Shown here piece after piece: positions 15,695 through 58,394 of a DNA stretch of 64,000 nucleotides. The DNA lies in the NCBI GenBank assembly GCA_964016885.1, contig OZ024746.1, positions 48,980,001-49,044,000 of the forward strand, read 5' to 3'. This DNA is from Eledone cirrhosa (Eukaryota). The notes beneath the pieces were generated by a model that was not told the DNA's origin, searched no databases, and saw only the letters and a list, made by a program, of their open reading frames with translations. The position numbers and the translations under genes were made by a program. Each line of letters opens with the position of its first letter. Positions within the stretch are counted from its first letter, which is position 1.

Positions 15695-16254
15695 TCCTTT
15701 GTCAGTGTTGATCAAACGAGCAACGATGGTTGCTAGACACTACGGGATAATACGGGATGTTTGTTTACAAACAGACCGAGCATTATAATAAATGTTCGGT
15801 GAATCCATACGTACATATATATATGTGTGCATGTATGCATATATATATATACATACTACTGTACGTCTGTATACATATATGTATGTACGTGTACATACTT
15901 ATATTTAAGTAACAGCCGTACTAAGAGTGGGAAAATACATTTCGTTTCATCTTTTCCGGTATCGTTTTCGGTGCACCCGGCCGATTAACCCACTCGATAT
16001 GCAAATTGGGCTGCTCAGCCGTTAATATGCATAAGGTAAGTATATACGTTAAACAATCTGGCAGCAAGGTATAGGTTGCTGGCGATAGCTTAAAAGCTTG
16101 AAACTAGTACAGCGTTCCTTTGTCAGTGTTGAACAAACGAGCAACGATGGTTGCTAGACGCTACGACATAATACGGGATGTTTGTTTACAAACACACCGA
16201 GCTTTATAATAAATGTTCGGTGAATCCATACGTACATATATATATGTGTGCATC

Positions 16255-16292
<38 letters not shown>

Positions 16293-17114: not shown

Positions 17115-17178
<64 letters not shown>

Positions 17179-18122: not shown

Positions 18123-18156
<34 letters not shown>

Positions 18157-18517: not shown

Positions 18518-19437
<920 letters not shown>

Positions 19438-24000: not shown

Positions 24001-24473
24001 ACATAGTCCCAACGTGCATCAAGGATTCCATTCCAGTCCCCCACTAAAAGCAAGGAGCGGGACGTTCCCAGAAAAGTCTCTAGACGTTTGAAGAAGTCTG
24101 GCCGCGGTGTCCTGGATGGGGCATATGCGGCCACCAGCCTGAAGGCTCCACCTTCACTACCGTCAACGTCTAGGACCACCAGTCGACCCCCCGGGTCCAG
24201 ATGTACTGTCTGTGTTACGAGGCCCAGGTGTTTCCGCATCAAAACGGCAACTCCACCCCCACCCCCCGGTTGACAGAGAGATGCGTAGATCTCAAAGTCA
24301 TCGAAGATGGGGGCCAGCTGTCGCTCGCTGTGGATCCTGGACTCGCAAATGGCTACCACATCCATACTGTGCGACCTGAGGTCGTTTAAGAGTTTGCCCT
24401 GTTTCCAGGGCATCCCCAGGCTACGTACGTTCACACATCCAACTCTTATATGGGTTGTGTTGGTGCTGAAACC
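21045..24473 (-). pseudogene. LINE ORF2 (APE endonuclease, RT, C-terminal Zn finger), frameshifted
   Basis: NVRSL, ICES, AYAP, GDWN, SYLDR, SDH; KSPG, NFRPITLLN, KAFDRV, AYADDV; CPRC..ETVAHAFIHC. Confidence 0.92.
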
Positions 24474-24491
24474 TTAAAAGAGGAAAAGAGA

Positions 24492-26430
24492 TCACTCACC
24501 CTTCGTCTCCTGGGGACCAGGCTTTACGATTTCCATGGGGGTGTTGGAGCGGTTGTCTGGGTGGGTGGTGGTGTCTTGCGGGGTGGGGACGGAGATGTTT
24601 GGTGGGGTGGGGTCTGGTGGGATGGGATGGCGGTGTCTGGCGTAGGGAGACATTTGAGAAGGACACGGTTAAGTGGTTTCACGCAGGAATTCCCCACATC
24701 CTTTTCAAATGTTTCTTTTAGGGACCTATAAGTTTGTATAGGGACCCTAATCAGTTTTAGGTTCAATTTTTTGTTATTTTTAATAGAGTGGGCGAAAGTT
24801 TTCCCTTCGGTTTTCACTGAAGGGTTGTTCGTGATGGTCTCCATTAGTGTTTTGTTTTCAGTGTTTATGTAAGTGTAAGTGTAATTTTCTTGTGTTGTGT
24901 TTGTTTTTGTCTGTAGTTCTTGTGTGTGCTTTCGTTTTGTTGTAGGTATTTTGTTTTCAGGAGGTGGGGGTTTTGTTTGTGATGTTTTTGTTGTTTGTGT
25001 TGGTAGTTGTATGTTTGTGGTAGTGTTTGCTGGTCTTTTGCTTTTGTGATGTCTTTTCTTTCTTTTCGAGCGATGGGGTTCTCCCTCGTCTTCACTGGGT
25101 GATGGCGAGAGAGCCTCATCTGTTGTATCGTCTGTGTGATTGGGGAGGGGTATGTCTTGGGGAGCTGTTGTGTCTGTGTGTGATTTTGCAGTGGTTTTAG
25201 GTGGAGTGGGGTTGGGTGGGACTGTGTTTGTTGTGGTTATTTTTGTGTGTTGGTGTTGTTGTTGTTGTGGTGGTGTTGGTGGTTGTGTTGTTTTGATGGG
25301 TGTCGGCAGAAGAGCCTTTTTTTGACTCATTAATTTAGGACAGGAAGCCCTCAGGTGACCCCCTGCTAAAGCAATGGTAACATGAAGGCCGCATACCCTC
25401 AACCGAAAAGTTTATGAAGGTGAGTCCGTCCAGGAGTACACGTTGTGGGATCATAGCTATCCGCTCTGGGCTCATTTGCACCAGAACTTCAACGCTAGTC
25501 CCATTGAATACATCTCTGGGCGACTTTCCTACTGACAGTATTCTGTCTTCATCAAAATTGATGAAGCCGCACAATATCCACCATATGTTCACCTTTGGTG
25601 TGACACTCGTGATTTTAATCTTTTGTGTCCTTTTTCCCATGTATGTAGGGAAAAATGTATACAGGTTGGATACAATTGGCGACACAGAGTAATTTTGGGC
25701 CGTCAATTGATCCTTCATGAGTACCGAAATACTCCCAAAGAGTTTGCTTCTTTGAATGAATGAAATATCATTCATTGAATTTTTGAAAACCAGTTCAATT
25801 TTTTCTGTGACAATTGGACTGGTTTTCGGGTAGAATTGGAAACTGTCCTAAAAACTATCGTTTTGAGAGCAGTTTCCTTGCGAATTTCTACCGGAGAATT
25901 GATGCTGAAAGCACCATTTTTTTCGAAAGTGACATATCTCCTAGCGTCCTTTAAAAGTTATTCGGCATTTGTTATGTCGAGATATGTCAGATTCTCCTTT
26001 TTCTGAACTGTCTGTGCAAAGGAGATTTTTGGTTTCTTTGTGGAATTATCCGTGTTGGTGGTGTTGTCATTATTGTTCTTATTGTTGTTGTTATTCTTGT
26101 TGTCACTGATGTTGATATTATTCGTATTTTCCTTGGTGTTGGTGTTGGTGTTGTTGTTGTCTTTGATGCTGTTGTTATTGGTGTTGTCTTTATTTTTTTC
26201 TTTGTTGTTGTTGTCATTGTTGTTTTTATCATCATTATTGGTGTTGTTGTTATTTTTGTTGTCATTGAACTGTTTGGTGTCAATTGTGTTGTTTGGATAT
26301 GAATTTGTTTTTACAATTTCATTTCGTCTTTCCATCTCCATAGTATCTAGGGAAGAAGACGATGTTGACTGCGAACTATGTAGTCTTTCCGACTCTCAAC
26401 CACCATTATCGTTGAACACAGCGTTCATAA
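24492..26430 (-). pseudogene. LINE ORF1 (gag-like), frameshifted
   Basis: Asn-rich N-terminus, KISFAQTV, CYHCFSRGHLRASC CCHC knuckle split by a frameshift, Pro/Thr-rich tail. Confidence 0.75.
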
Positions 26431-26755: not shown

Positions 26756-27770
26756 TGTTTCTTTATTAGCCACAGGGGCACAAAAGAAGGGGACAAATAC
26801 AAAGGGGGAAGTTTACATACAATAAAAACGTGTAAAATGTTATCACAAATGCAATTTAAAAAGTTAGTCGATTTTCCCCAACAGGGGGAGACAGTTTATA
26901 TGGGTAACACTTACCCCCCAAAAAATGTGCAACCCTCATCTGCAGGAGTACGAAGAGTTTGTACTCCTTTCCTCTCCTCCTCCTTTTCCTCAACCTACAG
27001 GCTGATATAGAGTGAAGGCCCATTCACTCGGGCCATTCTCGCCACTTTCACCCCCCTTTCATAAAACTTGCTGGGGTACAGCACCTCTCTCTCTCCATCC
27101 TGATTCTTCTTCCAAAGTGGTATTTGTAAAAAAGAATCAGTTGTTGGCCGGAGAGAAAGGTGTCTGACCTCAGCCCTTTCAACCTTGTCCACCATACAAC
27201 CTCTTTCGCCATAGCTATCACACAAAGGAAAACCGCCTCTCCTTCGTTTTTGAAGGAGGGTGGCGGTTTGATCATGACAATGGACTCGGTGGTCAACCGG
27301 ATTGGTCCCACCCGCGACAATAGTCGTTCTACATAGCCCCACAGGTCAGTGACGCCCGGGCAGTGTATGAATGCGTGCGCGACGGTTTCTTCGTCTCGCA
27401 CGCACCTCGGACAGATCTTTTTTGCAGGGTCCCTGCCCGGGCGCCCATGTCTGTAGAGCTTGTCTCGAACTGGTAGAGCTCCTCGGTAGCACTGCCAGGC
27501 CAGGGACTTTTGGAAGTTGTCCATCGGTCCCGGGCGGAAGATCCTACCGAACAGACTGGCCAGTTCATCTTCCTCTACGCCTAGAGTTTCACCGAAAAAA
27601 ATTTTCAAACGAATATTTCGCCCCTGTAGGGGCGAAAATGAGTTGACCCACCACCTGAAGGTCAGACGGAGGGTCAAGTTACACAATAATATAAAATTTA
27701 ACTGAAAACTCACGTTTTATTCTTACATAAAATAACGGAAACTTCTCCGCGAAGTTACACACGTCTGGTA
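26756..27770 (-). mobile_element. Internally deleted copy of the same LINE (5' ~175 bp fused to 3' ~840 bp)
   Basis: 27595-27770 matches 26475-26650; 26756-27594 matches 20806-21641. Confidence 0.9.
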
Positions 27771-27870
27771 GAGAGATAGATAGATAGATAGACAAATAGA
27801 TAGAAATAGAGAGAGAGAGCAGGGGAGAAATAGATAGATAGATAGAGAGAAAGAGAGCTTGGGAGAGAAG

Positions 27871-27924
<54 letters not shown>

Positions 27925-27925
<1 letters not shown>

Positions 27926-30575
27926 TTCTTTATTTACCATAAAGGCATAAAAAGAAGGGACAAATACAAAGGGGGAGCTTACATGAAATCGAGTAAAAAG
28001 GGTATAAAATGAAAATAATCGAAAACAACCTCAAAAGGGAGGGGACGTGATGGGGGTTGCACACACCCCCGAAAAAGTGTGCAATCCTTTGCCCGGGGAG
28101 CACATGGAGAAGGTGCTCCCCTCTCCTTCACTTCTTTACCTACAGGATGGTATACAGAGAAGGCCCATTTACACGAGCCATTCTCGTCCCTATCACCCAC
28201 CTTTCATAAAACTGCTTGTGGCCAAGCACCTCTCTCTCCATTCTTATCCTTCTTCGGAAGAAGTAGACCAGACTATGGCCAGAGAGGATGTTGCCTGACC
28301 TCAGACCTTTCAATCGTGTCCACCAAACAACCTCTTTCAACATGGCTATTACGCACAGAAAAACCGCCTTTGCTTCCTTTGTGAAGAGGGGGGGGGGCGG
28401 CTTGATTGTCACCACGGACTCGGCAGTCAATCGAATCGGCGCCACCTGCGACAGTAGTCGTTCGGCGTAGCCCCACAGATCAGCCACGCCCGGACATTGC
28501 ACCAATGCGTGCGCAACGGTTTCTTCGTGACGCACACATCTAGGGCAAATCTTTTTCGAGGGATCCTTGCCCGGGCACCCGTGTCTGTAGAGCCTCTCTC
28601 GAACGGGTAGAGCCCCCCGGTAGCACTGCCAGGCTAATGACTTCTAGAAGTTGTCCATTGGTCCCGAGCCGAAAGTCCTACCGAACAGGCTGGCTAGTTC
28701 GTCCTCTTCCATGTCCAGCGACTCTCCAAGGGTGTCATCGCTAGCCACCAGCCCTCTATAGAATGATGAGGTGGATTCTCCACCGATGGCCTGGCCCGCT
28801 TGCCAGAGAGCCCTGAGCGCCTGGGCACACTCAGTGTGCCAGTCTCCCAGTTTTCCGGATCTTTGCTTGACCCAGGACTGCAGCTCGGTGAGCGAGACGA
28901 GTCTCGGAAAGGCTCGTTTCACGAACGGAGCCCACACCGGTTTACCAGTGAGGAATACCTGCAGGTGCCGTAGCCTTAATGCGTGCCTACGCATCATCAA
29001 CCATGGCATCCCCAGCCCTCCTTTCGAAGGTTGTTGGCAGCAGATGGATCTTCTCACCATAGGAGGGAGCTTCTTCCACAGAAATTGGAAGAGCATGCGT
29101 TCCATGGTGGTGAGTGTTTCCTTAGGTCAAGGCACGACAGTCAGGCGGTAGTAAGTGACGGACGCTATGTAAATGTTCACCACCTCCGCCCGACCTTTTA
29201 GGGACAGCTTACACTTGGCCCATTTCTTGGTTAGTGCAAACACCTTGTTCGTAACCTCGTCCCAGTTCTTTTCCACATGGAGGTCCGGTCCAAACCAAAC
29301 CCCAAGCAACTTCACCGGGCCCTCAGTCCAGTGTCCGACGACACCGTCGGGAGGCATCGGTCTGCCTCTCCACGTTCCGAGTTGCAGCCCGATGGATTTT
29401 TACCGGTTCAGTTTCGCTCCTGACAACCTTTCGTAATCCTCCAGTAAGGTACCGATCGCCTAGATCTCCGAGTCGGTCGATACCATTACTGTTACGTCAT
29501 CAGCGTAGGCGGACACCGCTTTGCTCAATCCTGGTTCCAGGGGGATACCCTGCAACAACTCCAACTTCCTCAGTAAAGGCTCGAGAGTCAATATGTACAG
29601 AAGGGAGGAGAGAGGGCACACCTGTCGAATGGATCGTGTGATTTCGAACGGCTTTGAAAGGTAGCCGTTCACCTTGATCCTAGAACAGTTGTGGTTGCTA
29701 TGTAAGGCAGTGATCCAGCCTCTGAAAACAGGACCGAACCCAGCCGCCGCTAGCACCGCATCCAGGTAACCATGGTCGACCCTATCGAAGGCCTTAGACT
29801 GATCCAAGTTGATCAGGGCCCCACCGAAGCCGGGTTTGTTGCCAACCCTCTCTATGATGTATCGTATGAGGTGGAGGTTATCGTGAATGGACCTGGATGG
29901 GATAGCACATGTCTGCGCATCTCCCACCAGGCCACCCACGACAAGCGCCAACCTTTTTGCTAACACCTTGGCCAAAATTTTTAACTCTGTGTTTAGCAGA
30001 GTTATGGGCCGAAAATTATTTATACTATCCCCCTTGTTCTCGTCCTTTCTCACCAGCGAGACTACGCCCTTGGCTACAGAACAAGGAATTCTCCCGTTCT
30101 GCTGCCAAATGCAGTAGACCGCTTCGAGGATTTCGGAGAAGAAGACCGGCATTGCTAAATAAATTTCGTAAGGTATACCATCGAGACCTGGAGATTTGTG
30201 TCTGCTGCATTGGCTCAGCGCATCCCCGATCTCATCAGCCGAGATTGGTCCCTCGCAGGACTCGAGAGACGCGGCAGGCCGTCGAGGTATGGACCGAAAT
30301 CCACGTCCCCGCCCGGACCCTCGCCTCCCCCGAATAATCGGGCAAAGTGCCTTTGAAAGGCCTCGCACATCTGCTTAGGTTCCCGGATCACCCGTCCATC
30401 CTCGTCTTGCAAAGACCGGATGGTGGATCGATTTCCACTCTTAGCTTCTGTCACGCGGACCCAGCCAACGGCTTTGGCCCCCTCATTACCTAGAGCACGT
30501 ATTTTACTTCGAATGACGCAGCCTTCGTGCTTTGCATCGAAAAACTGGTTCAAGGCCGTCCTCGATGCCAGCACT
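27925..30575 (-). mobile_element. 5'-truncated Tx1/L1-like LINE, sister subfamily
   Basis: KSPGLDG, NFRPITLLNTELKILAK, DQSKAFDRV, AYADDV; frameshifts; (GATA)n on both sides. Confidence 0.9.
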
Positions 30576-30637
<62 letters not shown>

Positions 30638-31639
30638 GAGAGAGCTGGGGAGAGATATTTAGAACAAAATCATCACAAATTAGTTGATATATTTTTGATA
30701 ATGTTTAAAAAAAAATGTAATCGATTTAAATGAATGTAGAATGAAATGCCATGATTTTCAAGAGTGATTAACAATATGTATTAAAAAAACCGCCATGAGA
30801 TTAAACACGGCAAGCGAGTTATAGTCATGAATAACGTCATCTATATTTCATATGCTCACGAATTACTTTAAAGAAGAGTGCATTCATCCGCCCAACTGTT
30901 GATGAAACGTGTTTGAGCCGTTTTTCATTTGCGGTAAATGCCATGTCAATACACTTGCGATAGAACTGCCTGGTAAAACAAACAGTATAATTACCACACA
31001 AATCCGTAATCAATATAAAACAATAGATAATCTCGATGTTTTTAAAAAGGAAGAATAACTCTTTGACCTAACAGAATAATATGGTTCTTTAGTAAATAGA
31101 ACAAACACAAGAGTGGCAGCCATATAATAACATCGTTTATAATGAGTTTAGAACATCAGCCTAGGGTGAAATCTAATTAATATAGAGTATATTTAATCAA
31201 GACCATGAATATTTTTCCGCTGAAGTGCAGCCTTAATCGATTTCATGCTTATGCAAGAATTCAGTAACATAATAGTAGAAAAATAAGATTGTTTGACGCG
31301 GCCTGACTTTCTGAAGGCCATTACTGGTGTGAGAGGGGTAAAAGTCTTACAACACGGGAAACTATAAACAATTTACACAGATGACACACAGAAAACTAAT
31401 ATACGTATACGAAAGGACATTTGAAATAGGATGTTTAAACATTAACTAAAATGGTAACGATTATCTTCTTAGCAATTAAATAACTGGAAATGAATGCATA
31501 GTACGACAACTTGCCAATCTTTAATAGATTTTGTCAATGTTACCTTGACTTTAATTATCCATCATAGAGAAAAAGCTGTGACCAAATAGTTGGAATTTAA
31601 ATTGATAATTATTTGTGTATGATTCCACTGACATCCACC

Positions 31640-32329: not shown

Positions 32330-35300
32330 TTGTTATTCCTTGAATCTCAGTCATTGATGTTGGTTAACTGGAAAGTCCGTTGGATTGAATATCAAGCCAC
32401 TACCTGCAGCCTCAGATATTCAGGACGTATCGGAGGGTTCTTGCTGTTCCAAGCAAGCATGCCTTTTGAAGCGTTCCAAAAAGCGTGAAGGGGCCGATTT
32501 TCTTTAACCATCCCTGGAAACTTTTGGAGATAGTCCCCAGTGCGCCTATGACAATCGGGATCACTTTGACTTCATGGCAGTTCCAAATCCTTTTCACCTC
32601 CCACTTTAGGTCCTGGTATCGGTTAATTTTCTCCCTCTCCTTCTCTTGCACTCTCGTGTCGAACGGGCAGGCAACATCCACAATCAAACACGATCTTTTT
32701 TCTTTGTCCACAACCACCAGGTCAGGTCTATTGTGTTCCAGTTTTTTGTCCGTCTGTATCCTAAAATCCCACAGCACCTTCACCTGATTGTTCTCCATCA
32801 CCGCCTCTGGCCTATGCTCATACCATTTCTCAGAATGTGGTAGATTGTTTACTTTGCATAGGTGCCAGTGGATCACCCTGCCCATCACATCGTGTCTCCA
32901 GCCCTTATAGTGGGTCTGGGCTAGGTGTTTACACTCGGACACAATGTGAGCCACAGTCTCCTCTCTCTCTCCACAGATCCTGCACAGTGGGCTAGCCTCC
33001 TCCTTGTAGATATGGTGCTTCAACCACTTCGTTTTGAGGGCCTGCTCCTGCGCAGCCATTAGCATTCCTTCTGTAGCCTTTTTGAGGTCTCCTCTTCTCA
33101 ACCAGTTCCATGTCTGTGGATCTCTAAATTCAGTTTTCTCAAAGAAGGTACTATGAAGGGATTTTCCCTTAAGGCTGCTCTTCCTCCTTGATGTTATTTC
33201 CTCCTTGGACATCCCCTGGCCTACTGTCCCCTCCTTCAGTACAGTTCTGAGCATTGGCTCCTTACTATAGGTCACGTATTTGTATAGGTTGTTTTTCTCC
33301 ATCTGAACACAGTCCTCTATGCTGATAAGACCTTTTCCACCCTCAGATCTCCTTAGGTAGAGTCTATCGACATCACTCCTCTTGTGGAACATGTTGTAGA
33401 TAGTCAATAGCTTCCTAGTCTTCCTATCCATTTCTTTTTGTTCAGCAACATTCCATCGGGAATTTACTGCGCTTATGGCATTTCTGCTGTTCAGATGTGA
33501 CTTCAATACGCTCCTTACTCTCCGAATGTATTCAGTTCTTAACAATTCCTTCATTTTTTTGTTCTTTATGCCATCAGCCTCCAGAACGCCCAAATACTTG
33601 TATCCTTCCTCAGAGTCAATTTCCTTTATCATCTCACCTGTTGGTATCTGGATCCCGTTACTTCTGCTCAACCTACCCCTCTTCATCACAATGACTCCAC
33701 ATTTACCAATACCAAACTGCATACATATATCACTGCTGAAAATACGGACAGTGTCAACAAGCACATCCAACTCCTTCTCACTTTTCCCGAAGAGCTTAAG
33801 ATCGTCCATGAAGAGGAGGTGATTGATGGTAAGCTCTCCCCTTCCCAACTTGTATCCTGCTCTCACTTTTCGCAGCATAATGGTCAAGGGCATCAGGGCA
33901 AGGACAAACAACAGAGGGGACAGGCTATCTCCCTGGAAGATACCTCTCTTGATCTTCACGCTTCCCAAGGATACTCCAGTTGATGTCAACTCTGTCTCCC
34001 AGGACCCCATACTCCTGCCTAGCAACTGTCTGATGTTATCTGCCACCCTGAAGATCTCCAGGCTTTTGGTGATCCAGGAATGAGGCACCATGTCAAATGC
34101 CTTTCTGTAGTCTATCCATCCCATGGCAAGATCAGTGTGTCTCCTCCTGCAGTTCCCCATTACCATCTTATCAATAAGCAACTGGTCCTTTGTACCACGT
34201 GACTTCTTTCGGCATCCTTTCTATTCGTCCGGTAACAAGTTGTTTGTGTGGAGGTGATGGTAGATTTCCTCAGACACAATGCTCGTCAACAGTTTCCACA
34301 TTACGGACAGACATGTGATAGGTCTATAGTTGGTAACATCATTACCCTTGATTCGGTCTTTCATTATCAGAACTGTGGTACCTTTTGTCAACCACTCTGG
34401 CACCTCACCCGACACCAAGCAGTCATTGAACATGGCCGTCAGCTTCGGGTGGAGGGATGTTAAATGTTTAATCCAATACCCCTGCACACCATCTGGGCCT
34501 GGTGATTTCCAGTTGGTTAGTTTTTTGGCCTGCCCCTTAAGAGTTTCAACTGTGATACTCAAATCAGTTTGTTGCTGTGCCTGCTCACCGATCTCCCTCT
34601 GTACTGTCTCAATCCACCCTGCCTGGGCATTGTGTCTAACATCCTGCTCCCATATTCCTCTCCAGAATGTTTTAGCTTGTTCCGCCCCAGGGATCAAGTC
34701 GTTGCCTCTTTCTTTCCCCTCAAGCTGTCCAAACAGCATCTTCTGGTTGTTGTCGAACATGCGGTTCTGTTTATACTGACTGACTCTGTTCTCGTATCGC
34801 CTGATTTTGGCACTCTTTGCTACAATGCGTTGCTTCAATTCCTCTATGATAATATTTAGCTTTTTACTCCTAGTTTTGTATTTTATTTCCAGTCTATTTT
34901 TAGTGCCTATGTTTTTTAGTGTCCCATTCAGTAGTGACTCAAGCTTTCCTATGTCATTTCTCATTTCCCCGATTTGCCCACTCAGTCGCTTCTTCCACCA
35001 CGGCTCTGCTCTTTCTTGTCTGTTGTTTCCTCTCGCTTTTATACCAAGTAGTTTCCTCACCGTATTTGCTGTTGCTTTGAGGATATTGTTGCACTGGTGA
35101 AGACTCCTCGCCTCAAGGTATGGGATGACTTTGTTTACCTTAGCTGTTGTTTCTTTTAACTTTTTCCTGTCTACAAATCTTAGGTTCATAGGTCACCCAC
35201 TATCATTGTTCAATTCATCTACCACTAGATTTAGGATGTCAACCGAATCTTGTCCTAGCCCGTCAGCATTCATCTCCTCAGTGGCCGTATCTCTGTTCCA

Positions 35301-35900
35301 GGTATTATTTATCTCAGTATTCAGATCATTGTCTGCTTCGGGTGGTTCCTCCGTTCTCAGGACCTCCTCACCTTCATTTCCCACCGGCTCGCTTGTCTGG
35401 CATACTACACCCGCCATCTCCAAGCCATTCTCTCTGCTCAGTTCCTCCAGTTCCAGCTCGCTTATCCACCCATTAGTTCTTATTACCCGAGCCTGCCCGG
35501 CCAATTTTTGTTCATCTAATTTAAATAAACCAATCTCGTTCCAGATGTTATGCATCCGTCTCCTGTAGCCCCTCTCCTTGGGGTTACTTTTCAGGTAGCA
35601 TTGCATAACAGTTCTATTCAATTCTTTCGTCCAGTTGGTTCTGGCCCCTTTCCTTCTTCTTCTTCCTCCAACATCAGCAGTATTTGGTTGACAGTCAGGT
35701 TCCTGCTGCTGAGCCAGGGGCCACCTGTTGGGTGAGAGTCTGTCACATGACGTTCTAGTCTCCATTTCACCGTTATTCGAACTGTTTATGTTCGATATTT
35801 AAACACTCTTATCTAGGATCGGCGAATGTATGTTTACATAGCCATCTGTGGATCCGCCATCCCACTTGGCCCTTGTGTGGCATTATCACCACGCTGTATA
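32330..35900 (-). mobile_element. Near-full-length Dong/R4-clade non-LTR retrotransposon
   Basis: Single RT-RLE ORF; 3' end abuts (AAT)n at 32275-32328, the known Dong-type target. Confidence 0.9.
32412..35765 (-). pseudogene. RT + CCHC + restriction-like endonuclease ORF with two in-frame stops
   Basis: NYRPITCL, DYRKAFD, QGDSLSP, FMDDLK, CRIC..H..EC, RH, PDLVVVD..VDVACP; TGA at 35193-35195 and TAG at 34221-34223 in one frame. Confidence 0.92.
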
Positions 35901-36929: not shown

Positions 36930-38281
36930 TTGTTCTTATTTTCCTTCATTATTGTTTCTGAGATATATGCCGAGTGTCTTCCCGACACCTAGGGCAAATA
37001 AATTCACAGTGTGCATTGGTAAGCCAGTTAATACAGCACATAGATTATAATTAGAAAAAAAAAACAAAAAAAAACAAACATATATACTCATGTGCATATG
37101 CATATGTAAATACAAGGAGGGATATCAGTCTTACAGAGATAGTGCTCTTCTCAATACGTGTGCAATACCAGTCAAAACAATGTTTTGCCCCTCATGCAGA
37201 GAGGGCAAACCAGGAATCATTCGCAAAAATTGTTCTGTTCCTTTCTTGATCATACCCAGTCCTCCCACAATCGGTGGTATTGTAACGGCCTTGAGGTGCC
37301 ACATTTTCTCAATTTCAATAAGCAGATCTTTATATTTTCGTAGCTTGTCAAACTCTTTTGCCGCGATATTGTGATCACATGGGACGCTCATATCTATCAA
37401 CAAACAGACCTTGTTATGTTGATCTTTTATAATGATGTCAGGTCTATTTGCTTTTATGGTCCTGTCAGTATGTACAGGAAAGTCCGAGAGAATTGTTACT
37501 TTTTCTCCTTCAGTTACAGCCTCAGGGTGATTGTTGTACCACTTGTTTTCAGCTTTGATTTTGTAATGCCGACATATTACCCAGTGTAGATATTGGCCAA
37601 CTCTGTCATGTCTATATTCGTATTCTACTGGTGCTAAAACTTTACATCCAGAGACTAAGTGATCCACTGTTGCAACACCGGCATTGCAGAATCGGCACTT
37701 TGGTTTTATTCCGTTTCTCCTCACATTGGCCTGGTAATTACGAGTCAATAAGCTTTGATCTTGGGCAGCTAAGATGAAGCCTTCACTCTCCGCCTTTAGC
37801 CCTGAACTACGTAGCCACTGACGGGTGTGCTTTTGGTCAACATCAGCTTGCTTGCTACGGGCCACATATTTGCCATGCAGAGGTTTGTGCTCCCAATTTG
37901 ATGCTAATTGTCCTTGCCCTTTTACTTTTGCCAGTGATTTTATGTGCTTAGCAACATCAGTTGCATCGGTTTCTTTAGTCTGTCCAGCCTGGGTATCAAG
38001 CATGAGATCAGTAGCATATTTTTTGCTCTCCTTCAAGATAGAATGAAGCATCTTACTTCTCTCATGCTTTTCAACAAGTTTCAGCATATAGTCCTTAGAT
38101 GTTTCAAGGTATTTGGCCAGACCAATGATGGTGGTCTTGTAAGCAAGTTCAAATTGGATCAGGCCACGGCCTCTCTGAGTTCTAGGAAGGTAAAGACGAT
38201 CCACATCTGCTTTTGGGTGATGCATCCTATTACAGGTCAGTAGCTTACGGACTTTGGTGTCGATTCTTTTGATTTTACTCA
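36929..38281 (-). mobile_element. 5'-truncated Dong/R4-clade LINE, second family
   Basis: HHPKADVDRLY, AAQDQ, CRFC..H..GC, RHD, RPDIIIKD..IDMSVP; (AAT)n on both sides. Confidence 0.9.
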
Positions 38282-38312
<31 letters not shown>

Positions 38313-38313
<1 letters not shown>

Positions 38314-38524
38314 GGGCGGTGGACTGGCAGAATCCGTAGAGCGTCGGACAAAATGCTTAGCGGCATAGAGTTATGGCCCTTTACATTCTGAGTTCAAATC
38401 CCACTGAGGTTAACTCTGCCTTTCATCCTTACGGGGTCGATAAAATAAAGTACCAACTGGAGTTGATATAACCGACTTTCCTCCTCCTCTTCAAATTGCT
38501 GGCCTTGTGCCTATATCAGAAACC
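38313..38524 (+). mobile_element. tRNA-derived SINE
   Basis: A/B-box-like tggcagaatc and gagttcaaatccc; core gcctttcatccttacggggtcgataaaataaagtacc shared with other copies. Confidence 0.85.
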
Positions 38525-39180: not shown

Positions 39181-39475
39181 TAAATATAAATTCAGCGAGA
39201 ATCGTATTTCGGCGAGTAGAAATAAGCAAAACTCAATTTCCGATTTGTGTGGCAAACCCCCCAAGGACCAAAAGAGACCAGAGCAATAAACATATGTTAT
39301 AAAGGCCATATAATGATCGAACAAGGATATCACTTTCTCAACAGGTATTTTGTTCTACGCCAGCGTTTTGAATCACTCAGTGTTTTGAAAGCACATGTGT
39401 AACGGTACAGGGGAGAAAACCCCAGATTTTGGCAAATGAATTCAGTATGTGTAATCGATGCAAAAACTGCATAAA
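39181..39475 (-). mobile_element. Family X partial copy lacking the middle ~200 nt
   Basis: Reverse complement aligns to 39655-39815 joined to 40005-40130. Confidence 0.7.
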
Positions 39476-39486
39476 TATATATATAT

Positions 39487-40122
39487 AATTCCTAAGCCGA
39501 AATACGATTCTCGCTAATTTATATTTGTATTAATCTCCAGAGTCTAGCTATTGACCAGTTAATTTTCTTGATTTTTTTAGTTGATTTTATTAACTGATGA
39601 ATAGCTTATGTTAACTTTAACCATTCTGTCGAGAGCTTTATTAGATTTGTGATGTTTTGCATTCTTGCAATATTATACACAACTGAATTCATTCGCCTAA
39701 AATAAGTGTTGCCTCCTTTGCTGAACTCCACGGGGTCAGTAATAGTCACACTTTGAATTAGCAGTTGAACTAAAACCTGTTGATAAAGTGGCTTCCTGGT
39801 TCAATCATCTTGCCAGAAGCCTAACATTATTTATATAAGCGGACAGTACTTGATTTAGGACTCGCAGAAACCCAAATACTGGATTTTACCAACCTTCCAG
39901 AGGTCCGGGTAAATTTTCAATCACATATATTTTTATTATTTGACCCCGAATTACTTGGTCGTTTCTTTGGGTGTGCGAATGTTTGTTTAACCATCGTCTC
40001 AGTGTTTTGGCCTTGAACGTATGTTGTAGCTCAGGTTCAACTGAATCATCGAGCGTTTGCCACACATCTCGGAAGTTGTTTTTCGTTAATTCCTAAGCCG
40101 AAATACGATTCTCGTTAATTTA

Positions 40123-40130
<8 letters not shown>
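39487..40130 (+). mobile_element. Family X full ~601-bp unit with ~40-bp terminal direct repeat
   Basis: cctaagccgaaatacgattctcg at 39491 and 40092; collinear motifs with the 615-bp array; (TA)n flanks. Confidence 0.8.
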
Positions 40131-40252: not shown

Positions 40253-40680
40253 CGGGCACACATATATATATATGCACGTATCAGTTTACCGAACATTTAT
40301 TATAATGTTCGCTTTGTTCGTTTGTAAACAAACGAACAGCCTGATTTACGCCGTACAGTGTGTAGGCAACCACGTCACCTTTTTGTTCAACACTGACACA
40401 GGAACGATGTACTAGTTTCAAGCTTGTTAGCTATCGTCAGCACCGTATACCCTTCTGCCAGATGGTTGAACGTCCGAAAGTATATACTTTCCTGATGAAA
40501 ATTAACGGCTGAGCAGCCTAATTTGCATATCGTGTGAGTTCAGTCGGCCAGGCGCACCGAAAACGATAAATGGAATAGAATGAAACGAAATTTCATTTCT
40601 CACTCTTAGTACGGCACAAACTTAAATGTAAGTATGTATGTATACGTACATACATATATGTATACAGACGTACAGTAGTA

Positions 40681-40770
<90 letters not shown>

Positions 40771-41198
40771 CAGGCACACATATATATATATGCACGTATC
40801 AGTTTACCGAACATTTATTATAATGTTCGCTTTGTTCGTTTGTAAACAAACGAACAGCCTGATTTACGCCGTACAGTGTTTAGGCGACCACGTCACCTTT
40901 TTGTTCAACACCGACACAGGAACGATGTACTAGTTTCAAGCTTGTTAGCTATCGTCAGCACCGTATACCTTTCTGCCAGATGGTTGAACGTCCGAAAGTA
41001 TATACTTTCCTTATGAAAATTAACGGCTGAGCAGCCTAATTTGCATATCGAGTGAGTTCACTCGGCCAGGCGCACCGAAAACGATAAATGGAATAGAATG
41101 AAACGAAATTTCATTTCTCACTCTTAGTACGGCAATTACTTAAATGTAAGTATGTATATATACGTACATACATATATGTATACACACGTACAGTAGTA

Positions 41199-41266
<68 letters not shown>

Positions 41267-41704
41267 CAGGCACATATACATATATGCACGTATCATTTTA
41301 CCGAACATTTATTATAATGTTCGCTTTGTTCGTTTGTAAACAAACGAACAGCCTGATTAACACCGTACAGTGTTTATGCAACCACGTCGCCTTTTTTCTT
41401 TTTTTTTTTGAAATTTGCATATCACTCGGTATGCAAATTAGGCTGCTCAGCCGTTAATTTTCATAAGGAAAGTATATACTTTCGGACGTTCAACCATCTG
41501 GCAGAAAGGTATACGGTGCCGACGATAGCTAACAAGCTTGAAACTAGTACATCGTTCCTGTGTCAGTGTTGAACAAATAGGTGACTTGGTTGCCTAAACA
41601 CTGTACGGCGTAAATCAGGCTGTTCGTTTGTTTACAAACGAACAATGCGAACATTATAATAAATGTTCGGTAAAATGATACGTGCATATATATATATGTG
41701 CCTG

Positions 41705-41746
<42 letters not shown>

Positions 41747-42985
41747 TACTACTGTACGTCTGTATACATACATGTATGTACGTATACATACATACTTACA
41801 TTTAAGTAAGTGCCGTACTAAGAGTGAGAAATGAAATTTCGTTTCATTCTATTCCATTTATCGTTTTCCATGCGCCTGGCCGACTGAACTCACACGATAT
41901 GCAAATTAGGCTGCTCAGCCGTTAATTTTCATAAGGAAAGTATATACTTTCGGACGTTCAACCATCTGGCAGAAAAGTATACGGTGCTGACGATAGCTAA
42001 CAAGCTTGAAACTAGTACATCTTTTCTGTGTCAGTGTTGAACAAAAAGGTGACATGGTTGCCTAAATTTCGTTTCATTCTATTCCATTTATCGTTTTCGG
42101 TGCGCCTGGCCGACTGAACTCACTCGATATGCAAATTAGGCTGCTCAGCCGTTAATTTTCATCAGGAAAGTATATACTTTCGGACGTTCAACCATCTGGC
42201 AGAAAGGTATACGGTGCTGACGATAGCTAACAAGCTTGAAACTAGTACATCGTTCCTGTGTCAGTGTTGAACAAAAAGGTGACGTGGTTGCCTAAACACT
42301 GTACGGCGTAAATCAGGCTGTTCGTTTGTTTACAAACGAACAAAGCGAACATTATAATAAATGTTCGGTAAACTGATACGTGCATATATATATATGTGTG
42401 CCGGTATGTATATATAAATATATATGCATACTACTGTACATCTGTATACATATATGTATGTACGTATACATACATACTTGCATTTAAGTAAGTGCCGTGT
42501 AAGAGTGAGAAATGAAATTTCGTTTAATTCTCTTCCATTTATCGTTTTCGGTGCGCCTGGTCGACTGAACGATATGCAAATTAGGCTGCTCAGCCGTTAA
42601 TTTTCATAAGGAAAGTATATACTTTCGGACGTTCAACCATCTGGCAGAAAAGTATACGGTGCTGACGATAGCTAACAAGCTTGAAACTAGTACATCTTTT
42701 CTGTGTCAGTGTTGAACAAAAAGGTGACATGGTTGCCTAAACACTGTACGGCGTAAATCAGGCTGTTCGTTTGTTTACAAATGAACAAAGCGTACATTAT
42801 AATAAATGTTCGGTAAAATGATACGTGCATATATATGTGTGCCTGTATGTATATATATATATATATATGCATACTACTGTACGTCTGTATACATATATGT
42901 ATGTACGTATACATACATACTTACATTTAAGTAAGTGCCGTATTAAGAGTGAGAAATGAAATTTCGTTTCATTCTATTCCATTTA
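40150..42985. repeat. HHR-containing tandem units (family B, sister of family A): minus arm 40150-41395, plus arm 41430-42985
   Basis: acggtg-CTGACGA-tagct aaca agctt-GAAA-ctag-TA-catcgt (e.g. 42211-42253); about 6 HHR copies; unit ~445 bp plus variable (TA)n. Confidence 0.9.
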
Positions 42986-47311: not shown

Positions 47312-47705
47312 TTAGATGCAAACGTTTTGGAATGTTTTACATATTTTTACTGTTCCATTAATGGATTGTACTTGTAGTTTCCTAACTAGTTGTGTTCTTT
47401 CTGTTCCTGTGAAGCCTAGCTTCTCAAGATTTGTATTGAGGTAGTTACTAACATATCCCAGTGCCCCATTAATCACAGGCATAAATCTGAAGGTGTAATC
47501 AGGGTGGAGTATCTGCAGATTTCTCATCAGTTCTGCATAAATATTCTCCTTTTCACTAATCTTTGATATTATATTGGCATCTGCTGGGCAGCTAATTTCC
47601 ATTACTGTGCATATTTTCTTCTCCCTGTCCCATATCATAATATCTGGTCTGTTATGCCTGCATTTTATTGGGGTTTTTACTGGAACATTCCACCAGTACT
47701 CTTTC
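47312..47705 (-). mobile_element. RLE-LINE C-terminal fragment
   Basis: HNRPDIMIWD..VMEISCP..KENIY..GALG restriction-like endonuclease motifs. Confidence 0.8.
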
Positions 47706-48054
47706 ATATTATGTATGTATGGATGTATGTATGTATGGATAGGTGTTTGGATAAGTGGATGGGTGGATGAATCTATACTTACACGTGTGTGTGAATGTGT
47801 ATGCATTTGTCTATCATATTTAACTATGCTCGAGAGCTGCATATATTCCCATTGTCTGTTGAGGTCTTTGCAGAATAATGCAGGCATTTATAATTCTTTA
47901 GTGATTTCGAATTATTGTGTCGCCTGATTATGCCTGATATAATATCATTTTAGTGATTTTGATGTTTCAACGTTTAGTGTATATATATTGAACATCCGTC
48001 GGTTCTGCCTACAAATGTTCCAGTTGTTCGATCAATGGAACAACATATGTGTGC

Positions 48055-50925: not shown

Positions 50926-51240
50926 TCCATCATTATTGTATGGTGTAAGTATTAGTATATTCGAATATTTGGTCTAGTTAATAAGCTGTATATACAGTTA
51001 ATTAACCTAAATTTTACTCTATCTAATAAATGTGTATGCTTGCAACTGAAGTTCTACTTTACGTTCTCTCGGTCATCCGTCAGGAATATCAGCATATCTC
51101 AGTTTCTGATGATCCATTGAAAGGGTGAGGTATATATATATATACATACATACATACTTATATACATACATACATTCATACATACATACACACAAACAGA
51201 CACACACACACACGCGCGCGCACACATATATATATATGTA

Positions 51241-53335
51241 TATATATTAGAAAGATCGAGTATCGAAAAATCGGCGCACGAGTTAACGAAAAACGAAATC
51301 CGATATGAGCGGCAGAGGGCTCAATAATTCAGATGAATCAGAGCTATAACTATCGTTAAAATACCGTCACATATAGAACAAGTCTACAATCAACCATACG
51401 ATTTAAAATCGATAAAGGAAGATTCGGGCCAAACAGATAAAAAATATCAATAAAACAATACGTCAATAATTTAAATGAATGTAAAATCATACCCGGACCC
51501 ACTAGAAAGGTGTTAAATCTAGCTTCATGGGTTTCTGTAAATCCTTAGACAGTACTCTATCAGCTCACATATAAATATAAAAGCCTACTAGAATAAGTGG
51601 AATGGAGTTTACGTCGTCAACGAGTTTTATCCTGGCGGCAAAGGAGTCAACTAGCGGTGAAAAACGCACATGGCATTAGACAAGGGAGATGACCCCTATA
51701 TCCGCGAAAATAATTCGAGTGAATGTGGAAATACACATATCGAATTAGAGTGCTCAATAGACATGTTAAAATAAAACAAAAGCTATTCATCACTCAATAG
51801 AATCGACAAAATATGAGCAATAAAATTAACTGGTGGATAGCTATGTCCAGAGCTAAATATATTAGAAAGATCGAGTATCGAAAATTCGGCGCACGAGTTA
51901 ACGAAAAACGAAATCCGATATGAGCGGCAGAGGGCTCAATAATTCAGATGAATCAGAGCTATAACTATCGTTAAAATACCGTCACATATAGAACAAGTCT
52001 ACAATCAACCATACGATTTAAAATCGATAAAGGAAGATTCGGGCCAAACAGATAAAAAATATCAATAAAACAATACGTCAATAATTTAAATGAATGTAAA
52101 ATCATACCCGGACCCACTAGAAAGGTGTTAAATCTAGCTTCATGGGTTTCTGTAAATCCTTAGACAGTACTCTATCAGCTCACATATAAATATAAAAGCC
52201 TACTAGAATAAGTGGAATGGAGTTTACGTCGTCAACGAGTTTTATCCTGGCGGCAAAGGAGTCAACTAGCGGTGAAAAACGCACATGGCATTAGACAAGG
52301 GAGATGACCCCTATATCCGCGAAAATAATTCGAGTGAATGTGGAAATACACATATCGAATTAGAGTGCTCAATAGACATGTTAAAATAAAACAAAAGCTA
52401 TTCATCACTCAATAGAATCGACAAAATATGAGCAATAAAATTAACTGGTGGATAGCTATGTCCAGAGCTAAATATATTAGAAAGATCGAGTATCGAAAAA
52501 TCGGCGCACGAGTTAACGAAAAACGAAATCCGATATGAGCGGCAGAGGGCTCAATAATTCAGATGAATCAGAGCTATAACTATCGTTAAAATACCGTCAC
52601 ATATAGAACAAGTCTACAATCAACCATACGATTTAAAATCGATAAAGGAAGATTCGGGCCAAACAGATAAAAAATATCAATAAAACAATACGTCAATAAT
52701 TTAAATGAGTGTAAAATCATACCCGGACCCACTAGAAAGGTGTTAAATCTAGCTTCATGGGTTTCTGTAAATCCTTAGACAGTACTCTATCAGCTCACAT
52801 ATAAATATAAAAGCCTACTAGAATAAGTGGAATGGAGTTTACGTCGTCAACGAGTTTTATCCTGGCGGCAAAGGAGTCAACTAGCGGTGAAAAACGCACA
52901 TGGCATTAGACAAGGGAGATGACCCCTATATCCGCGAAAATAATTCGAGTGAATGTGGAAATACACATATCGAATTAGAGTGCTCAATAGACATGTTAAA
53001 ATAAAACAAAAGCTATTCATCACTCAATAGAATCGACAAAATATGAGCAATAAAATTAACTGGTGGATAGCTATGTCCAGAGCTAAATATATTAGAAAGA
53101 TCGAGTATCGAAAAATCGGCGCACGAGTTAACGAAAAACGAAATCCGATATGAGCGGCAGAGGGCTCAATAATTCAGATGAATCAGAGCTATAACTATCG
53201 TTAAAATACCGTCACATATAGAACAAGTCTACAATCAACCATACGATTTAAAATCGATAAAGGAAGATTCGGGCCAAACAGATAAAAAATATCAATAAAA
53301 CAATACGTCAATAATTTAAATGAATGTAAAATATA
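51241..53335 (-). repeat. Family X tandem array: 3.4 near-identical 615-bp units
   Basis: Units start 51246, 51861, 52476, 53091; only isolated substitutions seen; TA repeats at both ends; strand inferred from G-U pairing. Confidence 0.9.
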
Positions 53336-54569: not shown

Positions 54570-54810
54570 TACCACAACTCCTTCGTTATATATATATATA
54601 TATAACCAAGGAGTTGTGGTACGGAACAAGATGCATCATAATGCACCAGAGTACTCAATACTTAGGGTTAATCCAGAAATAGCCGTCTAAACGGCTTGAG
54701 CTCTGCCGTCGGGGTCATACTTTTTTCCTATTTCCCACTCTACTACCCTAAGTATTAAGTACTCTGGTGCGTTATGGTCCATCTCGGTCCTTACCACAAT
54801 TTCTTTGTTA
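54569..54810. mobile_element. Short derivative of the Naiad pseudo-LTR 3' end with an inverted arm
   Basis: 54675-54810 resembles 555-690; 54603-54668 is the inverse of its 3' part; 54569-54590 is a further 3' tip. Confidence 0.85.
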
Positions 54811-54954: not shown

Positions 54955-54959
<5 letters not shown>

Positions 54960-55270
54960 ATACTTTGGGAGGGTCATGTTGCCAATAAGAAACACACGCA
55001 CCAGTTGCTTTCACTTCAATTTATTATATATTTATAAATTTACAAATTTATAAATTTCTGGTTGGTTGGTTGGTTCCACAACCAGATAGTTGTTTATATA
55101 TAGTCATAGTTCTTTATGACTATATATATAAACAACTATCTGGTTGTGGAACCAACCAACCAACCAGAAATTTATAAATTTGTAAATTTATAAATATATA
55201 ATAAATTGAAATGAAAGCAACTGGTGCGTATGTTTCTTATTGGCAACATGACCCTCCCAAAGTATAACAA
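54955..55270. repeat. ~315-bp near-perfect palindrome
   Basis: Arms are reverse complements about a 6-nt loop at 55109-55114. Confidence 0.9.
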
Positions 55271-55325
55271 TATCGGTTTCAACACACGATTCCAGATAAA
55301 GAATCTTGCTAAACAAATTCAGAAA

Positions 55326-55376
<51 letters not shown>

Positions 55377-55442: not shown

Positions 55443-57668
55443 AAGAATTAAAATACTAGAGTGTGTTGGAGTTAAACACCCTCTTCATATTATAGAAATG
55501 ACAGTATAAGATATAGCTCAATGTAATTAAACAGAGCCGAAGAATTATAAAAAATAAACCAAAGAAGCCTTCAATACATCAAAAGTCTTTATTAGCCAAC
55601 AATGTTTCGTCCTATTAAGGACTGATAAGGGCAAGTAAAGCTACAAGAAGCACTATCGGCCAATACAAGCCAAAAACTCAGAAGAATATGGAGTATACAT
55701 CTATTAAAGCTTAGGAAAGATATCAAGGAAAAGTTGGCTAAGATTAAGAGTGAGCTGTTACAAACATAGATATAGACCAAATAGCAAGGAAGTGATTAAC
55801 ATGTTGAACCCACATTGTAAATATTGTATAATGCAAAAACTTGAAACACAAATGGTAATATAATGCGAGAATTACAGTACGATATAGAATATAATATAAT
55901 ATAATAGATGGTGATAATAAAAAGCTTAATATATGTTTATATATATCTATACATATATACATTAGTACAAATACAAACTAACACTTATTAAGTATTTAAA
56001 TATATATATATATTGTTTACAGTATAATATAATAAAGATAAAAATAAGAATAAAGATAAAAATAAAAATAAAATATAATATTTTATTTGCATAAACAATA
56101 TAAAAACATTATAATAACATTATAATAACAATATTATAATATATTGGCATCAAAAGATATACAAAATTACATAATATATATAATTCAAGGTTAACAAATA
56201 GTATACAGTTTTACACAGGGTAAGAAAAAAATCATATAGAACTAAATTGTGTTGAAAAAATTGTGTTGAAAAAATATCCATGCCATTGCAACAAATACAC
56301 GGAGGTCAAGTCATTTTACATTGGCATAAATATTACCAAAATATCACAAAATATTACAAAATATAACAGAACAGTACTTCAAATAACATATATTAAAATC
56401 TATAATACGATTACATAAAAATGATATGGTATAACAACGTTAATATCAAATATCAAACAGAGTCTAAGGAAATGCTTAATATATATATTTACGTGGTTGA
56501 CATACACAGACATGTATTAATGAAATTACATGAATCCGACAGACAGCGTGTGGTAGTAAAAAAATAAATTAAATAAACCGAAGATCGAAAAACAAAAACA
56601 AGTATATTTACTTAGGTGTCACAAGCGGTTAAGTAAAAGAAAAGATAGAAATGTAAGCGGAGAATTGACTAGAAAACCTTTTTAAATTAATTAATATTAA
56701 AAGTATTTAAAATACATATTTAGTCACTTCAAAATTGGCTAGAGTTTAAGTCATCAAAAACGTATAAGTTTGAGATATTTCAATAAAATTATCAAGAATA
56801 GAGTAAAATATTCTCCGTTCAGTCGAATAACGTTACCAAATAAAAGGACTCTAAATAGAACTATGGTAGACCAATGGGAACAGAAAGAAGAGAGGTTATG
56901 GTGGATAGGAAGGAGCATAAAAGTAAAATCAATATATTATATAATATCATAAAAGGAGCATAAAGTTGAAATTTATATATAGTATAATAGAAGGGGCGGA
57001 TATTAAGTGTGTAGAGGAGCAGGTACATTAGTTGAATGAGACTCCAACCAAAGTATTTAATAAGATATAAACTCATAAGGTGTTAGTAGTGAAACTATAA
57101 TAATACTTAAGAAGATAGATAGGGTATGGTAGCCAAAAGACTATGGAAACTAAAATCGAAAGGCTGTAAAAAACTAATAATAATAAAGATGATGGTAATC
57201 AAAATGAACCTAAACAAAAAAGATAAGGAAATATAGCAGCTAATGGATACGATTTAAACTACCAGAACTTTTAGGTCTATAATAGAAGAAAGAATTAGAA
57301 ATGGCCTGGGGGCAGGAAGAACATATCTCAGACTTTCTATTAAGCAAAACTTCCCTAGAGAAAATTATAGAGTGGGTCTCTAGGATACAGAGATTACAGA
57401 ATTTAGTGTGTGTTGATAGGTTATTAGAGCGTGCTACTATACGCCAATTAAGGCTATATGGCATGCCAGCCCCTTTAAGATCCCAGATATGGTGTGCTAA
57501 AGAAGTAGAGTTCTTAAACTTAACATGCTTAAAATTAGAGATATGAGAATTAAACCTAGTTTTAAAAGTATTAGATGTGGAGCCTATATATGTGCTATTA
57601 GAAGAATTAGTCTTAACTTCACAAGCATAAACAATGTTCCTAGAGAGGCAGTGACCATTTAAAGGCAT
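55443..57668 (-). mobile_element. 5'-truncated Naiad-type PLE (third family): GIY-YIG C-terminus (57240-57668) plus probable ~1.8-kb 3' UTR
   Basis: PLNGHCLSRNIVY..YIGST..FKTRFNSH..CNLCILE..LLNRKSE; decayed HHR at 55594-55633; 3' boundary inferred from (TA)n. Confidence 0.75.
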
Positions 57669-57680
57669 ATGTGTGTATAT

Positions 57681-57718
<38 letters not shown>

Positions 57719-58394
57719 CACTTCCTCCTGTGCGTGATCCTAATACGTGATCTCTGTGTTTGGTTTGTTTTATTTATTCAATTATAGACATATGTATACA
57801 CACTGACACACACACACGCACACACACACACACACACACACGCGCACCCCCCCCCATATATATATATATGTACAGAGAGGAAGAAAATAGGAGGTACGAT
57901 TGTGATAGGTATTTGCATTGATTGATAAATAGAAAGATATGTAGTTTTAATTCAGGACTCTATGTTTAACGTATTTATACTTACACTTGCATGTACACAT
58001 ATATATATTTAAGATGATTAATAAAAATATTCTTTTCTTGTACATACATATCTATATTTGTTTATTCACTCAAATTTAGAAAGCTTATATTTATTCCGGT
58101 ACGCATCACGTATATTTATTTAACTTTGCCATTCATATTAAGTATATACTCACATATACTTACGTACACTAACGTATATTCTTATCTTTATGTTTGGGTG
58201 GCTATACTTACACATACACGCATATATTTCAAAGTTGATAGTCTGACATCATAAATCCGAATATTGCTTATAAGAAATTGTTCTTTGGTGGTGCAATTGC
58301 CACTTCGGTTTTTGTCTTTCAGCTGTTGCTCAATATAATCCTTTAATTCATTGTTGTACGTACATGATCACTGATAAATTGTTTTATGTACTGC

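Follow-up and report, generated by a model that had tools for sequence, protein, structure and literature searches.

A split, variant hammerhead fold in tandem non-coding units of Eledone cirrhosa points to a Penelope-dependent retrozyme

In a 64 000-nucleotide stretch of the Eledone cirrhosa genome (the window, numbered here from its first letter), a tandem array of ~600-base non-coding units and several diverged relatives, together called family X, lie in TA repeats, and the question they raise is how such a unit is processed and spread. A preliminary description of these copies took them to be structured, non-coding and organized like retrozymes, but found no hammerhead in them and suggested a different or unknown self-processing RNA. 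From the sequence comparisons given below we conclude, with a probability of roughly three in four, that family X is a young, non-coding, Penelope-dependent non-LTR retrozyme, which likely self-cleaves, circularizes and enters (TA)n by way of a Hydra-clade enzyme. We regard it as a variant of the non-LTR retrozymes, not as a new ribozyme class.

Results

Family X in the window and genome-wide

The copies of family X in the window are as follows.

51242–53332 (−): subfamily A tandem array, period 615, 3.4 units, 98.5% self-match; fixed 3′ end at ~51245, 5′ end in the fourth unit, 8 bases behind its predicted cut
39487–40130 (+): subfamily B copy, a single 601-base unit plus a 44-base redundancy
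39181–39475 (−): subfamily C copy, 5′-truncated, with an internal deletion of ~190 bases
5790–6025 (−): subfamily D copy that starts 7 bases behind the predicted cut and reaches the fixed 3′ end

The tandem array and the terminally redundant 601-bp unit are thus as first described, and the two partial copies, which sit within TA runs as had been stated, match the 601-bp unit at 70–82% and are therefore homologous to it. The longest ATG frame in the subfamily A array has 47 amino acids, in keeping with the earlier view that no credible ORF is present.

Genome-wide, family X comprises at least seven subfamilies, the representatives of which are 47–88% alike and have units of ~594–624 bases. A subfamily A query gave 151 matches of ~100% identity in 21 scored loci of 373 candidates; for subfamilies B, C, D and G the first-look candidates numbered 3810, 3638, 3251 and 2269, respectively, of which 40 were scored each, and these figures are not copy numbers. 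Further variant groups (E, F, H and B′) were found in flanks and in 400 kb adjoining the window, the latter holding four family X loci. The 15 subfamily A arrays examined contain 2–14 near-identical units each, with 99–100% identity between the units of one array and exact junctions in arrays of up to 14 units.

Copies of family X, read on the T-rich strand, have one fixed 3′ end, which runs into TA repeats, and variable 5′ ends. This fixed end was seen in 14 of the 15 subfamily A arrays (the 15th extended beyond the retrieved stretch) and in the listed B and D loci. A fixed 3′ end combined with variable 5′ ends is the signature of target-primed reverse transcription, and its occurrence on the T-rich strand identifies that strand as the RNA, as had been proposed from G-U pairs; the ribozyme descriptor introduced below also matches that strand, and gave no match on the opposite one. 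Family X therefore consists of dispersed, TA-inserted, terminally redundant and tandem non-coding units with one hammerhead each and with neither an LTR nor an ORF, which bears out its earlier characterization as a structured, retrozyme-like element and agrees with the definition of non-LTR retrozymes.

At four loci (L034, L036, L051 and L130) the last few bases before the TA run are repeated in short form, which suggests repeated abortive priming at the fixed end. A small TA-flanked element lies at 54956–55328 of the window; at a second locus (L006:1400–1444) the beginning of this element is joined immediately 5′ to a subfamily A array, and at locus L027, ~320 foreign bases stand 5′ of the array. 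Both fusions are possible template switches.

The window also holds more conventional elements. Arrays of ~410–420 bases at 8358–18125 (+) and 40274–42983 have a canonical type I hammerhead core with a short stem II and are ordinary retrozymes with TA-rich tracts within the unit. At 9264–10519 (−) there is a 310-base array of 4.1 units, 100% identical to one another and with a canonical hammerhead, an inverted part of which lies near 10719; a piece resembling the junction of this array also occurs 5′ of a D copy (locus L087). Broken reverse transcriptase frames, all on the (−) strand, are found at 21098–26395, 27048–30658, 32412–35798, 37131–38393 and 47312–47887, and we take them to be LINE-type reverse transcriptases of at least two kinds.

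The hammerhead region

Every full unit of family X, we are highly confident, holds a type I hammerhead fold that is split and non-standard. In the subfamily A array its parts are as follows.

51491–51632 (−): variant type I hammerhead of the 3′-most unit
51625–51621 with 51495–51491 (−): stem I
51620–51614 (−): core positions 3–9 (U3, G8), with an extra base at 51613
51612–51604 with 51544–51537 (−): stem II, with an extra A at 51536
51535–51532 (−): G12 to A15.1; stem III closes at 51500–51497
51496 (−): C17; predicted cut between 51496 and 51495
51632–51629 with 51603–51600 (−): putative loop I–loop II helix
52106–52247 (−): hammerhead of the second unit, core start 52235, C17 at 52111
52721–52862 (−): hammerhead of the third unit, core start 52850, C17 at 52726

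Three helices surround the core and stem I is the open one, as in type I hammerheads. An eight-pair stem II encloses a long insertion, stem III is extended and capped by a hairpin, and the cleavage triplet is a standard one ending in C17. The two halves of the core lie 85 bases apart, which is why the fold was overlooked. The preliminary description was right that the canonical core string is absent (our first scan, for a canonical core with a strict stem II, likewise found no match in family X), but a complete variant hammerhead is nevertheless present in all three full units of the array. In the subfamily B copy of the window the hammerhead region spans 39760–39918, with the predicted cut after 39905 and mismatches in stems II and III, while the subfamily C copy has lost the 3′ half of the ribozyme and retains the 5′ half only.

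A descriptor of the motif matched these three units (cores at 51620, 52235 and 52850) and none of 1000 shuffles, and in strict form it matched eight of 18 representative copies, the rest carrying stem mismatches. Since the descriptor was written after the motif had been seen, the real test is an alignment of 15 copies from nine variant groups. In this alignment 10 of 11 core columns are invariant, compared with 17 of 156 elsewhere: U4, G5, A6, A9, G12, A13, A14, U16.1 and H17 are the same in all copies and A15.1 in 14 of 15, and the canonical C3-G8 is replaced by U-A in 12 copies and by U-G in three. Pairing is kept in 93% of cells over the hammerhead stems (97%, 90% and 93% for stems I, II and III, respectively), compared with 25–48% in slid controls, and double-sided changes number 24, against 6.6 in shuffles, a count that is not to be read as a probability because the copies are related by descent. 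In stem II, six of the eight pairs have changed on both sides.

The U3-A8 covariation is natural and active in hammerheads, and loop–loop pseudoknots are common among them, by the account in PMC3088659; for Penelope-like hammerheads, PMC4209133 describes U3-A8, a stem II of seven to eight pairs and an extra base after A9. A helix of 4–9 pairs between loops I and II is predicted in all nine groups of family X, with a sequence that differs per group; it could also belong to the inactive fold.

The foot of stem II departs from the standard form, in that pair 10.1–11.1 does not directly adjoin A9 and G12. An extra base (A or C) lies between positions 9 and 10.1, and on the other strand every copy has an additional A between 11.1 and 12, directly before G12, which produces an A-A or C-A apposition; the next pair beyond the extra bases is G-C in 11 and A-U in two of the 15 copies. 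In the part of PMC3088659 that deals with the foot of stem II, only U-U is named as a tolerated mismatch, and the ribozyme may, on its sequence, therefore be slow; the extra A is the main doubt about its catalytic speed. A literature search on mismatches at 10.1–11.1 returned no paper. Activity of the hammerhead, and the formation of circles, are predicted, and we consider both probable.

A TA-flanked element of more than one unit at 18676–19355 (−) of the window has a canonical hammerhead core (match at 18835–18762) together with one additional purine in either strand at the base of its long stem II; it is a second family with the same oddity. Pattern scans of metagenome sequences (73 loci) and viral contigs (32), of which 100 of 105 were scored with the RNA model, gave a best E-value of 0.039, a chance match given its broken stems.

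The suggestion that the unit is processed by a new, non-hammerhead ribozyme can be examined against the same alignment. Structure and conservation extend to some 450 bases outside the hammerhead as well, and a comparison with Rfam, which the preliminary description had proposed, gave no match to the unit, with 0 matches over the window at the gathering threshold and five in an E-value scan of 51200–52600, all due to chance; both results would suit such a ribozyme. However, the columns with the highest conservation in the region coincide exactly with the hammerhead core, and other known folds fail on conserved positions. In a group II domain V reading, which calls for an invariant catalytic triad five pairs away from a 2-base bulge, the first and second positions of the catalytic triad vary among subfamilies and pair 628–657 is G-C in 12 copies and A-U in three; for group I P7, the hairpin ribozyme, HDV-like ribozymes, twister and telomerase CR4/5, positions that are needed also vary among subfamilies. 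These readings were judged by eye from consensus features, with pair counts for domain V only. An early idea of a pseudoknot was dropped as it rested on a private change in the subfamily B copy of the window. We find processing by such a ribozyme scarcely credible: where a different or unknown self-processing RNA had been envisaged, the region holds a type I hammerhead with the U3-A8 covariation in its core.

Other conserved helices

Outside the hammerhead, three features of the unit bear on how the RNA might be used, each given here for one unit.

51319–51344 (−): bulged hairpin lying upstream of the fixed 3′ end and forming part of a three-way junction; present in every unit
51752–51853 (−): second bulged stem, closing a multi-helix domain; repeats each unit
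51425–51429 (−): alternative partner of the stem I 3′ strand, 66–70 bases behind the cut; repeats at +615, +1230 and +1845

The bulged hairpin has three invariant or near-invariant pairs followed by a 2-base bulge on the 3′ side, and the second bulged stem lies directly downstream of the unit junction, the probable priming site; a bulged stem does, as reported, occur twice per unit. The preliminary description listed covarying helices on the T-rich strand, and three of them stand: the bulged hairpin (98% of cells paired, three of seven pairs changed on both sides), the helix around (c/g)tgatga (92%, three of six) and the first bulged stem (85%, three of seven). A small 3-pair hairpin is near-invariant, so that it is conserved rather than covarying, and the helix closing the three-way junction is 47% paired, being out of register in the MAFFT alignment and visible by eye only. 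The (c/g)tgatga stretch itself lies inside a helix and is no part of the hammerhead core; it is not conserved in subfamilies C, D and G.

The alternative partner of the stem I 3′ strand is conserved at 20–70 bases behind the cut, and its helix is 95% paired, none of the pairs having changed on both sides in the 12 rows that cover it in the alignment. In predicted folds of circular RNA, by a model of pseudoknot-free pairing, stem I has a probability of 0.0 in five of five monomers, and in four of the five the downstream partner occupies the 3′ strand of stem I. Fragments ending 12 bases behind the cut have a predicted stem I probability of 0.11–0.83, and for subfamily B the best predicted fold of such a fragment is the hammerhead. 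The downstream partner is thus a predicted off-switch for the ribozyme in full-length RNA. According to PMC7229834, most animal retrozyme circles leave the hammerhead unblocked.

Neighbouring Penelope-like elements

Two Penelope-like families with a C-terminal GIY-YIG domain occur in the window, and each is a candidate mobiliser.

502–716 (+): Hydra-type Penelope-like element 1, pseudo-LTR, with a second copy at 4083–4268; U3-A8 hammerhead with its core at 507–513 and predicted cut after 590; bulged hairpin at 617–638, fixed-end site near 690 and bulged hairpin at 695–714
4303–4560 (−): Hydra-type Penelope-like element 2, 3′ end; compact U3-A8 hammerhead with its core at 4553–4547; bulged stem at 4454–4385 and fixed end at 4303

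Both families carry R-W-K or R-W-R, D-K-T and CxCX5C, which PMC8557442 gives as marks of the Hydra clade together with insertion in (TA)n and the presence of hammerheads. Element 2 has open frames of 927 amino acids elsewhere in the genome, and all 12 loci of element 1 either end at the fixed site or read through it.

Each of the two elements has a fixed end before TA runs with a U3-A8 hammerhead upstream of it, and the hammerhead of element 1 resembles that of family X in its long loop II, in the extension of stem III and in having an alternative partner farther downstream. Bulged stems stand before and after the fixed end in elements 1 and 2 and in family X; the downstream stem of element 2 has just one pair above its bulge. 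Bulged stems on both sides of the end together were found in none of 1000 shuffles, and a strict test of 15 family X monomers found them on both sides in seven, on one side in seven and on neither in one. Family X therefore shares its (TA)n target and the cis-architecture of its fixed end with both local autonomous families.

Extended homology was sought as well. A profile comparison with the elements of the window gave no match of family X to element 1 or 2, and the RNA covariance model reached only an E-value of 1.1 with the element 1 ribozyme. Family X copies fused to a Penelope-like frame with no TA run between them were not encountered; the protein matches in the loci fall in the flanks, and a Pfam search gave no match for the two Penelope-like frames.

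Two further pieces in the window are of this kind, namely a short TA-flanked relative of the element 1 pseudo-LTR at 54605–54808 (+), running from the 3′ part of the ribozyme to the fixed end, and the remnant of a third GIY-YIG-coding Penelope-like element at 57240–57773 (−), which ends in a TA run at ~56489.

Genomic traces of cleavage and repeated copying

If the RNA is cut where predicted, some copies might begin there, and we counted TA-flanked 5′ ends from −2 to +20 of the predicted cut. In subfamily B, six of 20 such ends (30 loci) fall within this interval (p 7e-5 against a uniform spread), and in subfamily D nine of 15 (20 loci). The cluster is absent in subfamilies C (one of 12, with a query that favours long copies) and G (one of seven) and weak in A (two of 20). 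Subfamily B is better evidence than D, for which the query began near the cut site, favouring short copies, and several copies share a small duplication. Among eight loci chosen without a score (four in the window and four in flanks), three start ~7–16 bases behind the cut. Microhomology may contribute to the cluster, since the predicted cut site is TA-like, and a second cluster of 5′ ends lies at another TA-like site, at +110 to +118.

Of the 15 subfamily A arrays, seven have A and eight have G at core position 8, and no array contains both; in one array the three scored units share a private change. Such uniform alleles are what the copying of a single circle would give and fit one template being used many times over, although a multimeric transcript of homogeneous sequence would leave a similar picture. 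The U3-G8 arrays are as young and mobile as the U3-A8 arrays. In one 14-unit array (L314, G000:C1:44273000-44282900), a G-to-T change at unit position 310 is present in five of 13 scored units, a mosaic that could have arisen if a single damaged base of the template was misread at random from pass to pass, or that could reflect gene conversion or an assembly error. Contigs of three other sequencing runs hold close relatives, tandem or circular and with A at position 8, and are no evidence of expression; contigs of one run presumed to be RNA cover only 51330–51476.

These traces can be set against two other accounts of the arrays. Were the hammerhead attenuated or dispensable, the same element and mobiliser could produce arrays by template switching from linear read-through transcripts, which would be terminally redundant, and the 5′ clusters would mark stalling at the ribozyme structure or TA microhomology. 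The non-standard stem II foot in 15 of 15 copies, the mobility of the U3-G8 arrays and the second 5′ cluster all accord with this, and there are precedents: cleavage by the hammerhead is described as not needed in vitro for an anole Penelope-like element (PMC11167929), and non-autonomous Chlamys elements without a hammerhead are described as forming head-to-tail arrays (PMC8557442). However, copies only 47–62% alike have the whole core unchanged, whereas their stem II covaries, a pattern that suggests selection for catalysis, and the exact junctions of arrays of up to 14 units also tell against this account, which we consider unlikely.

Amplification at the DNA level, by Helitron-like rolling circle or satellite expansion with the RNA structure as inherited baggage, would likewise yield units 99–100% identical within an array, and unequal exchange could give a variant in five of 13 units. 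It is opposed by the single fixed end with a variable opposite end, by G-U-rich pairing on one strand, by short copies whose 5′ ends lie at the ribozyme and by an end architecture held in common with reverse-transcriptase-coding elements, and we regard it as very improbable.

Discussion

For a Penelope-dependent retrozyme we propose the following cycle. The ribozyme would fold and cut while the array is being transcribed; once the downstream partner had been made, it would capture the 3′ strand of stem I, switching the ribozyme off and keeping a monomer circle closed, the closure itself being perhaps the work of a host ligase such as RtcB, by analogy with known retrozymes. A Penelope-like enzyme would bind the two bulged stems that flank the short TA-like stretch, nick (TA)n and prime there. 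On cut linear RNA, reverse transcription would stop after ~220–250 bases; on circular RNA the enzyme would roll and give long arrays.

Among known elements, the metazoan non-LTR retrozymes are close in organization. As they are described (PMC7229834; bioRxiv 10.64898/2026.07.22.740005), they are, like family X, non-coding tandem repeats with one type I hammerhead per unit, low GC and dispersed arrays, for which a circle and a Penelope-like mobiliser have been proposed. The family X unit, at ~600 bases, is larger than the ~170–400 given for invertebrates and axolotl (PMC7229834); a retrozyme survey reports unit sizes of 51–972 (bioRxiv 10.64898/2026.07.22.740005). Family X differs from the retrozymes of PMC7229834 in its non-canonical core, split by a long insertion, and its conserved blocking helix, and from metazoan retrozymes in that cis-elements common with a specific autonomous clade are visible. 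The survey argues for a Penelope origin of retrozymes from distribution and phylogeny, using canonical descriptors (bioRxiv 10.64898/2026.07.22.740005), and such descriptors, as given there, would likely miss family X.

The hammerhead itself resembles the U3-A8 hammerhead of Schistosoma Cercyon elements as described in PMC4209133, which has a stem II of 7–8 pairs, a short stem I, an extra base between 9 and 10.1 and a purine–pyrimidine pair at 10.1–11.1. Compared with that account, stem III is long and predicted to be monomer-competent in family X, whereas it is minimal and dimer-dependent in Cercyon; family X further has a large domain as its loop II, an additional invariant A before G12 and a predicted Watson–Crick helix between loops I and II.

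Hydra-clade elements, by the description in PMC8557442, share with family X a (TA)n target, a partial-tandem structure and a hammerhead upstream of a fixed internal 3′ end, and those of the E. cirrhosa genome share in addition the U3-A8 core and paired bulged stems; what sets family X apart is the absence of an ORF and of extended homology with either of the local families. In the anole Poseidon system, as reported in PMC11167929, reverse transcription starts at a fixed internal site downstream of the hammerhead, which is comparable to family X, as is the need for RNA 3′ of the start site, and the enzyme is predicted to be a dimer. The start site of Poseidon is described there as not homologous to the target, whereas here each fixed end is located within a few TA-like bases, so that priming by microhomology seems likely. 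No description of family X was found in the literature on octopus or cephalopod retrozymes and Penelope ribozymes; supplements, such as file S2 of PMC8557442 on Hydra hammerheads, may hold related motifs.

A wider reading, which as a whole we put forward tentatively and with more doubt than conviction, would take the two bulged stems around the priming site, common to family X and both autonomous Hydra-type elements, as recognition sites of a dimeric Penelope-like reverse transcriptase, framing a telomerase-like internal template, and the 600-base circle as a switchable parasite of that enzyme. The split, pseudoknotted hammerhead would cut once in transcription and then be locked by the conserved helix, and animal genomes would contain a large class of such split U3-A8 hammerheads that has been overlooked; if true, this class would possibly extend to Penelope-like clades reported to lack ribozymes.

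So far, the case that Penelope-like elements mobilize animal retrozymes has been built on their co-occurrence, on hammerheads present in both and on phylogeny. The E. cirrhosa genome contains a retrozyme and intact autonomous elements with a concrete recognition architecture in common at the priming site, one that can be tested, and young family X arrays keep traces of one template copied repeatedly. The family, with thousands of candidate sites, contains a form of hammerhead that is missed by Rfam and by standard descriptors, and it has a conserved ribozyme-blocking helix of a kind previously thought to be mostly absent from animal retrozymes.
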